Part shown: piece after piece, positions 1 to 3,000 of the stretch
How positions within the stretch are numbered: position 1 is the stretch's first letter
Layout: each line of letters begins with the position of its first letter
IMG/VR virus record: IMGVR_UViG_2681813205_000011
Origin: a virus
Lineage: Duplodnaviria > Heunggongvirae > Uroviricota > Caudoviricetes
Direction: 5' to 3' (one strand)
DNA length: 7,367 nt
Made by a program: the position numbers

Positions 1-3000
1 GATGCGGATTTCCGCCTGCGCCATTTCCGCACCAGACTGCATCCGCTCCCGGCTGCTCCTGCCACGGATATCCGCATGAATTTTCCCGCATGACACCCAT
101 TCTTCCGTCATTTCTCCGGCAGCATTACGGGTTAACACCGGCTTCAGAACACTTATCATCTGTGTCAGACGACCTGCAGATATTGCCATTCCTCCCTCCT
201 CATAACACCGTCGGACAACGCAAATCGTAAATCAGCACGGACACAGAAAACGGCAGTTCCCCCTGCACGAGGTCTTCCCGCTCAGCAAGATCCGGATTCC
301 GGTACAGCATCCCGGTCAGTCGCATGGCAGCCCCCTTCATCCGGGTTAATGCCTCGCCCGGGATCAGCTCACCGTCCTCACTAATCACTTTATCCCGGCT
401 GCCCTGAATGTAGGCCAGCAGCACGGCGGTAGCCTGACGAACCTTGTCCATCAGCATGTCATCATCCGCGTCATGGTCAACACGCAGATGTGCCTTGATC
501 TCTTCCAGTGTCAGTAATGCCGTCATTTTCCGCCTCCTGCATCCCGTCCACGTTTTGCAGCCAGGGTCCAGGCTGATGAATGAGCTTCTCCGGGTTTATC
601 ACCGGTCATACTGTTGCAGTGCCACAGCGAGCCCCCCCACGTCACCGTATCGCCGGGGTGGTAGGTTTCACCGGCTCTGAACACACCGCGGTAGAGCATC
701 ACCGGCAGGGAAAATGTTTTTTCCGTACGCTGGCCACTGCTGTGCCGGATCACCACAGAGAACAACCGCTCCCCCGTCATACTGACGTCAATATCCGCCA
801 CCCCGTCAACCAGGCATTCCCATCCCCGCATTCCGTGCGTTTTTTCATACGCCCGCCAGAATCCTCCCAGGTGTGTGGCATACGTGCCCCGGGGAAAGGA
901 TTTTTGATCGTCAATAGCGGGGAGCACTTCCAGAGCCGTGGCATCACGCCCGTCCTGCGGAGCCGGCAGGGCATTCACCGCCTCCAGAACAGCCTTCTGC
1001 AGAACATCGGGATCATAGTCACGACCATCACGCGGAACAGGAATATGGCTTACCGCCTCTTTCACCATCTGTTCAAGCATCGGACGCACATCATCGGGGG
1101 TAATACTTTTGCCGTCCGCCGGTACCGGAATATTCGCAACCGCATCATTCACCGCCTGCTGCAGTACATCCGGATCATAATCACGACCATCACGCGGTAC
1201 CGGAATGGCCCCCACAGCGTCATCCACCATCGCCTGCAGAACCGGACGCACCTCATCCACCGTCACATGCTTCTGTAATACCGCCGACAGGGAAGTCAGT
1301 TTCTCTTCAAACGCTTGTGCCTGCGAGGCCATCTTCCCCTCAAATGTGCGCTGTAAATCCGCCAGCACCGTGGAGAATTCTTCACCCAGCGCACGGATAA
1401 TGGACAGTTCACGCTCTGTCATTTTCGCAGTATCCCCCTGAACATCGCCTTCACCGCATCACGCTCTGTTTCGCTTATGGCCTTATTACCGTCAGACGCG
1501 CCCTCCTGGCGTGTGCCTGACGACGTTTTCCCGGAAGACGCGAACGGATCCTCACGGGCATCACGACGGGACAGCGCCTCCAGACTGTAGTTCTGCTGCT
1601 GAAGATACAGTGCATCACCGCCGGCAAGGGGCGGCAGGTTCTCACGTTTACGGGCCTCATTGGGCGTGAGAAGCGTATTTTTCACCGATTCACCCAGCGT
1701 TTTCATGCGACGTTCGCTGTCCATTCTCAGCAGCGTGGTGACGTCAAACTCCGTGCTCTCGTTTTCCCCTGTTTCCAGCGCCTCATCCAGTAACAGCTCA
1801 ATGGACTCAATCAGCGTCTGCAGACACTGGGAATAATACTGCTGCTCCAGCGCCTCCACGTTGTCACTGGAAGGCGGCTGGCCAACGCCAATCTTGTAGG
1901 CCGGGACACGGAACACCGAACAGACAATTTCAGCCGTCATCTTCAGTTGTTCCACCGTCTGCGCATCCACCGGTGAAAACGTCGTGGGGTTATATTTCGC
2001 CCCGTTGCTCAGGATCGCCGTTTTCCCCGCATTTTCGCCGGTATACCCGCTGTCCCAGTTGCTCTTCAGTTTTTTCGCATTTTCTTCCGTTATACTGCCG
2101 GGGATCTCAATCACCCCGGACGGCCTGCCGCCATTTCTGAAAAAAGACGTCGAATTTTCCTGAATATGATGCCCCTGCGTGGCCGCCAGCCCGGCGACAT
2201 ACACCGGCGGCAATCCTATAAGCGGATGAAAAAAACAGTTAAACCGGTCGTGGATCACTTCCCGGGCAGGCACCGTCACCGCCTCCGTGATCCCGCAGTT
2301 CCGGTCCGGCGTGATGCGGTAGAACACCTCGCCGTCATCCGCCACCAGAGGTTCAACCCGGCTCCAGTCCAGAATACGCAGTTCTTTGATCTGCCCCCGG
2401 GGGTTGCGGATTTTCAGCACCACCGTATTGCCGTGACGCAATTTGGAATTCAGCCACAGTTCAAAAAACTGGATGCGATTCTGCTGCGCATTAGGACGAC
2501 GACAGAGACGGGCAGTATCTCCCTGCCGCTTTTCCCGGCGTATTCCCTGTACATCAGTCTGCATCAGGCGAAGCCGCATTTTGGCGATATCCTGGGATAT
2601 CAGCGAAATGCATGAAAACACCGCGTGAAAGGACAAAACGGTTTCCGGATCGGCTTTCACACCCTGCTGCCAGGCACCGGCAAAAGGCTCAGCCCCCGCC
2701 TGAAACAGGGACCGCCAGCCCACTTCTCTTACGTCACGTCCTGATTTCTGGTTTTTTCGGGTTCGCCGCAAAAGGTTCCACATTCGCCATGCTCCGCATC
2801 ACGTTTCTTTTTCTGACCTGCCGGACGTCGCACCGTGATGTACTCCGCCTTTCCCAGGCGAACCAGCACCTCCGCACACGGCTGTGCCACATCACGGATA
2901 TCCCCGGCCCGGGCATCATGCGTGCCCTGCAGATATCGGATCTTTGCCATAACCTGTTACGGGAGGCGCACGCCTCCCGTCCTCCTTATCAGACTCAGCC

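Follow-up and report, generated by a model that had tools for sequence, protein, structure and literature searches.

Split ribosome-binding sites, in which an RNA hairpin lies between the Shine-Dalgarno (SD) sequence and the start codon, were reportedly studied in genes 38 and 25 of bacteriophage T4 by Nivinskas and colleagues in 1999 and by Malys and Nivinskas in 2009. Hairpin formation cuts the SD-AUG spacing of gene 38 from 22 to 5 nt and that of gene 25 from 27 to 11 nt, mutations that destabilise these hairpins lower translation, and the layout is limited to close relatives of T4 (PMC3014915). Here, we analysed a 7,367-nt stretch of DNA (the whole of which we call the window) from a Shiga-toxin-phage-like prophage, IMG/VR record IMGVR_UViG_2681813205_000011, in which all genes of interest lie on the minus strand, as do the elements described with them. 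The stretch contains a stable hairpin between a gene for a prohead protease-major capsid fusion and a small open reading frame (ORF) of 73 codons (2950-2729) that overlaps the start of the portal gene. In our judgement, there is an even chance that this hairpin folds to bridge the SD and the AUG of the small gene, forming a split ribosome-binding site as in T4 genes 25 and 38.

A hairpin between the Shine-Dalgarno sequence and the start codon

The SD of the small gene, AAGGAGG (2987-2981), lies 30 nt upstream of its AUG at 2950, and its 3' end abuts the base of the hairpin ACGGGAGGC-GUGC-GCCUCCCGU (2980-2959), which has 9 bp and a folding energy of about -19 kcal/mol. The 8-nt spacer AACAGGUU (2951-2958) separates the hairpin base from the AUG and has no canonically placed SD, so that looping out the hairpin reduces the SD-AUG spacing from 30 to 8 nt. 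Folding of the 211-nt context gave pair probabilities of 0.93-1.0 for the hairpin; no other perfect hairpin in the window reaches 9 bp, and shuffled sequences have a mean of 0.19 such hairpins. A preliminary description of this DNA had noted a perfect GC hairpin with AAGGAGG upstream and an ATG downstream; both were found at the positions given above, and we verified the inverted repeat (2959-2968 and 2971-2980), the interval of 2961-2978 given earlier being its inner portion. The hairpin begins 14 nt past the capsid stop and does not follow that stop directly, as had been proposed. The tail after it (GUAACAGGUU) lacks a U-run, in agreement with the earlier description. A terminator and promoter scan of 2400-3400 found no canonical terminator or promoter, and an Rfam scan of the whole window at E-values up to 1 returned no match in the region. 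We also considered a start at the loop codon GTG (2970-2968), which lies 10 nt from the SD, and rejected it: it opens only a 4-codon mini-ORF, is out of frame with the small gene and is missing from relatives whose loop is GAAA.

In linear mRNA, the SD would be too distant from the AUG for normal initiation, and a very stable hairpin fills the interval; folding would join the two ends of the hairpin and give an effective spacing of 8 nt. The hairpin would in this way enhance initiation at 2950, which in the relatives would yield a protein of about 55 amino acids with a core resembling the N-terminal domain of ribosomal protein bL9 and a basic tail. Termination exactly on the portal start codon would then couple portal translation to that of the small gene in these relatives, and in the E. 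coli lineage of the window, where the stop has been lost, the small gene would extend 55 nt into the portal gene. Translational coupling between the small gene and the portal gene is likewise predicted from this layout.

The conservation of the layout was assessed in 73 distinct 60-nt upstream sequences from E. coli, Citrobacter, Enterobacter, Kosakonia, Atlantibacter, Entomohabitans and metagenomes, and our conclusions rest on this family-wide conservation, not on the window copy alone. A GC-rich hairpin with its 3' end 5-8 nt before the AUG was present in 69 of the 73 distinct relatives; the distance from stem to AUG was 7 nt in 48 of these 69, while at least 10 had 8 nt and 6 had 6 nt. GGAG(G) stood at the stem base in all 69 (69/69), its last G either abutting the stem or forming the first paired base. 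The SD-AUG spacing in relatives was 24-38 nt in the linear sequence and 5-8 nt with the hairpin looped out, and none of the 69 spacers had a GGAG, GAGG, AGGA, GGA or GAG at a distance suited to initiation. Because there is no conserved start codon at a normal distance from the SD abutting the hairpin, this SD can serve only the AUG of the small gene.

The hairpin itself occurred as 29 distinct sequences among the relatives, with a C-rich 3' arm and several stem types: ACGGGAGGC/GCCUCCCGU (the type in the window), GCGGGAGGU/GCUUCCCGC, GGCGGGG/CCCCGCC, CGGGGGC/GCCCCCG and GGCGGGGC/GCCCCGCC. In a MAFFT alignment of 42 sequences, the cells of the six shared pairs were paired in 99.6% of cases, compared with 44-61% when the partners were slid, and two of the six pairs switched from A-U to G-C, with a G-U intermediate observed. 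Loops varied freely (GUGC, GAAA, GCUU, GCGA, GAAU and others), as did the sequences of the spacer and of the stretch from the capsid stop to the SD; stem, SD and distances were constant. SD and stem were conserved despite saturation of synonymous sites in the adjacent gene. A metagenomic relative (L205; 1451-1503) offers a natural test: an extra stem-loop nested in its loop enlarges the hairpin to 32 nt, with the SD still abutting the stem base and the stem still ending 7 nt from the AUG, pointing to proximity of the stem base over linear distance as the property that is maintained. Across these sequences, we found an SD farther from the start than a working limit of about 15 nt, a hairpin lying wholly between the two, a looped-out spacing within the canonical range of about 5-11 nt, no other SD and compensatory conservation, the sequence-level features that mark a split ribosome-binding site. 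Of the readings offered in the preliminary description, the one it had called speculative, in which the hairpin brings the SD and the ATG to working distance, has the best comparative support, as the layout is retained in these 69 of 73 relatives; the mechanism is what we infer from that layout.

Compared with T4 genes 25 and 38, the locus has an SD that is similarly remote from the start codon (30 nt here; 22 and 27 nt in T4), a hairpin in between and an effective spacing of 8 nt (5 and 11 nt in T4). Both arrangements occur where two genes of a late structural operon of a phage meet, and both are kept in close relatives and absent from distant ones. The distant, AT-rich members of the present family lack the bridged layout: one (L171) has a normally spaced AGGA, and in two (L173 and L178) AGGA-like motifs occur close to the AUG, with ambiguous spacing. 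The two systems differ in sequence, in the gene concerned and in phage group, which is unrelated to T4 (lambdoid temperate siphoviruses here). They also differ in that the SD here touches the stem base, in that the hairpin of some relatives also resembles a weak terminator, and in that the layout is known from sequence, that of T4 from experiment. If the mechanism is true, the locus would add another hairpin-bridged ribosome-binding site that is conserved in nature, one from outside the T4-like phages in which genes 25 and 38 were tested.

Alternative roles for the hairpin

Several points weigh against a bridging role. The covariation reflects few independent events, with most relatives sharing one stem type, and gives modest support on its own. 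The assignment draws on sequence, RNA folding and the T4 precedent, and a stable hairpin beside an SD could reduce initiation instead of promoting it. The prophage is apparently defective, so the element may be idle in the window copy. In addition, a U-rich tract resembling that of a weak terminator follows the stem in some relatives (AUUUUGC or AUUUUAUA), and in a distant clade a terminator-like hairpin stands after the capsid stop, apart from the start of the small gene and not between its SD and AUG (for example, GGGGCUGUUUUUAUAU in L178). Because of these last two observations, the hairpin may have another or an additional role, and they suggest that the element may have descended from a terminator. 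In the main competing reading, which we allow tentatively, the hairpin would act on the capsid mRNA, either as a barrier to 3' exonucleases that stabilises a processed or terminated capsid transcript or as a weak terminator or pause site that lowers transcription of the portal and later genes relative to that of the capsid gene, with its position between SD and AUG being a by-product of a compact spacer; this role is compatible with a split ribosome-binding site. Stem-loops are common after the major capsid genes of phages, and the present one, a stable, short, GC-rich stem with a tetraloop 14 nt past the capsid stop, resembles such terminators and 3' stem-loops. It differs from them in having no U-tract in the window and none conserved in relatives. 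No U-run was present in the window or in its whole E. coli lineage, and the terminator scan was negative, yet the stem has been lengthened to 9 bp in the lineage of the window. The tract downstream of the stem is not conserved (GUAAUGC, AUUAGA, AACAGGUU and AGUAACUG), and we rejected a canonical intrinsic terminator on these grounds, the stem being present and the tail (GUAACAGGUU) offering neither a U-tract nor conservation. By contrast, a true intrinsic terminator in the spacer between the genes for the large terminase subunit (TerL) and the capsid fusion, GAACCGC-UCCG-GCGGUU followed by UUUUUAUUUU (4812-4785), was found by the terminator scan (4812-4795) and retained its U-run in 7/7 relatives checked from the same genera (Citrobacter, Enterobacter, Kosakonia, Atlantibacter and Entomohabitans). 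Lambdoid late transcription is moreover antiterminated by Q and reads through terminators. An effect on the capsid mRNA also leaves unexplained the GGAGG that always abuts the stem, the fixed distance of 5-8 nt to the AUG and the absence of any other SD.

Two further explanations appear much less probable. In one, which we regard as quite unlikely, the hairpin is an operator: the small protein would bind it and repress its own translation and that of the coupled portal gene, setting portal dosage. The N-terminal domain of bL9 binds 23S rRNA, and consistent with an operator are the bL9-N-like core of the small protein (Foldseek probability 1.0; about 1 Å root-mean-square deviation (rmsd) over 36-40 residues), its basic, disordered tail and the position of a conserved hairpin within the initiation region of the gene itself. 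The fold match is short, however, with weak E-values (0.13), and RNA binding is only surmised from fold and tail. The loop is free to vary in sequence and length, up to the 32-nt nested form, and the stem differs by clade while the protein core is conserved, unlike a sequence-specific operator. It is even less likely, and indeed very improbable, that the palindrome has no RNA function and arose by chance or acts on DNA, as a protein-binding palindrome or a recombination hotspot, with ribosomes that have terminated at the capsid stop simply reinitiating on the small ORF. In view of the shuffle mean, one 9-bp hairpin in 7.4 kb is in itself no more than mildly unusual, and two rearrangements map to the region: a deletion in Citrobacter sp. 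Cu233 (L003; 2959-3006) has its junction inside the hairpin loop, and the distant member L171 carries an insertion of about 400 nt between the capsid gene and the small gene. The maintenance of pairing through compensatory changes and differing stems, with variable loops, is instead the signature of a structure and not of a sequence-specific DNA site, and the conservation of SD and stem beside saturated synonymous sites argues in the same direction.

The small gene and its product

The small ORF is a real, conserved gene under purifying selection, as judged from its sequence. A search against the PHROG profiles matched it to phrog_829 (E = 2.1e-39), a family annotated as of unknown function, with residues 1-63 covering the whole 63-position profile (1-63/63) and the last 10 residues of the 73 falling outside it. 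The encoded protein is about 96-100% identical to copies in Stx phages and is annotated as a hypothetical protein in phage records (ORF57 of BP-4795 and YYZ_gp53 of YYZ-2008). A scan of one genome per species recovered relatives at 53-60% identity in Citrobacter, Kosakonia, Enterobacter, Atlantibacter and Entomohabitans, an exhaustive HMMER search extended the range to members at about 42-49% identity, and scans of viral and metagenome sequences added many further members. Among 15 diverse members (homologues at 36-62% identity), eight residues were invariant: Y6, T10, H11, D12, G16, D17, A26 and L29. For codons 1-37, the ratio of non-synonymous to synonymous substitution rates (dN/dS) was 0.10-0.25 against distant relatives, with dS of at least 1, and 0.05 against a closer E. 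coli variant; the median among Enterobacter-type relatives was 0.09. Polymorphic sites in codons 1-55 of the E. coli clade comprised 12 synonymous and 7 non-synonymous ones. The ORF raised as a possibility in the preliminary description is thus borne out by the phrog_829 match and by dN/dS values of 0.05-0.25.

The small gene was directly upstream of the portal gene in every context examined and downstream of the protease-capsid fusion gene wherever the neighbourhood was intact. Its conserved part comprises codons 1-55 (2786-2950), of which residues 1-37 form a predicted folded core and residues 38-55 a basic, disordered tail; peptides read from the translation include IRYLQGTHDAR and DVAQPCAEVLVR. 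The ORF had been described as basic and as overlapping the portal start: the overlap, of 55 nt, stands, and the protein as a whole is only mildly basic (net charge about +3, counted from the translation), its basic part being residues 38-50. Longer upstream starts are called by some gene callers in relatives (P0032, P0051 and P0053, 'MVPRRIEM...'); we set these aside as indel variants or ATGs internal to the loop. In the window, a TAA in the frame of the small gene 9 nt upstream of the ATG precludes a longer start.

In relatives, the small protein has 55-56 amino acids, and its stop codon shares one base with the portal ATG (TAATG or TGATG). The corresponding region reads GGCGAATGTGG in the window and GGCTAATGTGG or GGCTGATGTGG in relatives: the ancestral TAA or TGA has become GAA at 2785-2783, adding a lineage-specific extension of 18 codons and a stop (2729-2785) that reads the 5' end of the portal gene out of frame and contains 'ECGTFC'. 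Four of the five polymorphic sites in the extension are synonymous for the portal protein and non-synonymous for the small ORF. The portal gene has its own SD, GGAG (2792-2795), 8 nt upstream of its ATG and within the tail of the small gene, and a purine-rich GGAG or GGGG occupies the same position in relatives. The portal frame is -1 relative to the small ORF, and we considered a programmed -1 frameshift into it at GAAAAAAC; this candidate was rejected, as tandem slippage would need ACC to re-pair on AAC and the A-run is absent from relatives.

A Cys/His cluster (HGECGTFC) had been pointed out in the ORF. The string is present, mostly within the read-through extension, and it does not mark a conserved metal site: many E. 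coli copies have Tyr in place of the second Cys of the extension, relatives have Asn, Gly or Thr for the His of 'HG', and distant members have Gln, Ser or Tyr at the sole Cys of the core (C25). We rejected a zinc-binding protein, given that the ligands are not conserved across homologues and that relatives stop before the cluster. The cluster is an artefact: it lies in a stop-loss extension, evolves under the constraints of the portal frame and is not conserved. The annotation would accordingly be that of a core protein of about 55 amino acids with a variable tail and no metal site, which is a useful correction; the practical importance of the findings as a whole is modest.

AlphaFold2, run with an 11-row alignment, predicted residues 1-40 with a per-residue confidence (pLDDT) of about 90 and the remainder as disordered. 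The predicted core is of β-β-α-β type, with strands at residues 2-6, 18-21 and 35-37 and a helix at residues 23-31. Foldseek searches of the Protein Data Bank (PDB) with this model returned almost only the bL9 N-terminal domain (probability 1.0), with an rmsd of 0.7-1.4 Å over 36-41 columns, identities of 25-32% and target-normalised TM-scores of up to 0.86; the E-values were weak (0.13), the domain being tiny. In hhalign, the motif GD..V....A..L...G.A shared with the bL9 N-terminal domain was aligned, at a probability of 1% that is not significant. There was no Pfam match to Ribosomal_L9_N for the ORF and 14 homologues at E-values up to 10, a range in which Pfam gave only sub-threshold noise (DUF7302 at 0.024, YkuD_2 and Ribosomal_S19), and a sequence profile search of the PDB with the small protein gave no matches. 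The predicted protein therefore resembles the bL9 N-terminal domain in fold and is not placed in that family. Its core superposes on that domain at about 1 Å rmsd over 36-40 residues, and the phage protein differs from bL9 in lacking the long helix and the C-terminal domain and in being encoded in a phage head module.

The predicted fold of residues 1-37 (2950-2840) recurs in many uncharacterised small phage proteins in the BFVD database, among them proteins of unrelated phages of Gordonia, Bacillus, Staphylococcus and Rhodobacter and of marine viruses, and these models suggest a widespread, unnamed class of bL9-N-like small phage proteins. Our literature search found nothing relevant on BP-4795 head proteins or on phage proteins resembling the bL9 N-terminal domain. 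From the fixed position of the gene and the overlap of its stop with the portal start in relatives, we infer a role tied to the portal or to head assembly. Because of this overlap, the 'hypothetical protein' before the portal, a genuinely selected gene, becomes a candidate accessory factor for the portal or the head. It is unlikely, though conceivable from the modelled fold, that the protein is an RNA-binding regulator, which would either bind the conserved hairpin that precedes its own start codon and so meter portal synthesis by autoregulation, or mimic the bL9 N-terminal domain on the ribosome during late phage translation. If this were true, the shared function could extend well beyond this phage family, the fold being common.

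The surrounding locus

The DNA around the locus is 91-97% identical to that of lambdoid Stx-converting phages, including BP-4795, YYZ-2008, 2851 and many Stx1a, Stx2a and Stx2c phages. Of 5426 complete E. coli genomes, 1248 contained matches to DNA of this prophage family, as many as 7 copies in one genome; the family, which includes many Stx-converting phages, thus occurs in about one in four such genomes. In transcriptional order, the window encodes the small terminase subunit TerS (7058-6495), TerL (6498-4837), the prohead protease-major capsid fusion (4773-2995; Peptidase_S78 and Phage_capsid domains; phrog_617), the small gene, the portal protein (2783-1419; Phage_portal, E = 4e-80), a 299-aa protein (1422-523) and a gp6-like head-tail connector (526-200). 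The interval 2784-2994, between the TGA of the capsid fusion (2997-2995) and the portal ATG (2783-2781), had been described as the only sizeable coding gap of the operon, at 211 bp; with the small gene in place, the non-coding part shrinks to 44 nt (2951-2994). Nor is everything else in the operon coupled by ATGA overlaps, as had been stated, for TerL and the capsid gene are 63 nt apart (4774-4836), and it is this spacer that holds the intrinsic terminator. That terminator is followed by AGGAGG and, 5 nt later, by the GTG of the capsid gene, an odd position just ahead of the gene that needs the highest expression. The capsid gene itself ends in three in-frame stops within four codons, TGA GTC TGA TAA (2986-2997, minus strand); the two stops past the first TGA are a TGA at 2991-2989 and a TAA at 2988-2986, the latter overlapping the AAGGAGG of the small gene.

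The window copy of the capsid gene carries an in-frame deletion of 159 nt (53 codons) near its C-terminal end, at about 3044-3046 on the minus strand (codon 576/577). The deleted 53 residues are present in BP-4795, in all listed phage matches and in the best E. coli genome matches, and the capsid proteins of Enterobacter-type relatives have 644-646 amino acids. At the protein level, the deletion is flanked by VAV/AVAV repeats. The prophage copy in the window is probably defective, because conserved C-terminal capsid sequence has been removed and because the 299-aa gene is shorter than its counterparts, which encode 344-347 amino acids in relatives and 461 in BP-4795. The 299-aa gene (523-1422, minus strand) contains tandem 'IPVPRDGRDYDPDVLQ.AV' repeats and a weakly CBM_5_12-like C-terminus. 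Public records label its counterpart 'portal protein', and the YYZ-2008 annotation fuses that counterpart with the portal (861 aa).

The two rearrangements next to the hairpin in relatives differed in their structure. The deletion in Citrobacter sp. Cu233 took out the 3' part of TerL together with the entire capsid gene, so that of the hairpin just the 3' arm is left upstream of the small gene. The insertion in L171 (1766-2182) is flanked by the 12-nt direct repeat GGCAGCCTGAAA and holds small hydrophobic ORFs and a hairpin with the appearance of a terminator for the opposite strand; it looks like a moron. Farther upstream in the window, a perfect 18-bp palindrome (CAGTTAACA/TGTTAACTG) was present at 7239-7256, about 180 nt upstream of the TerS start.

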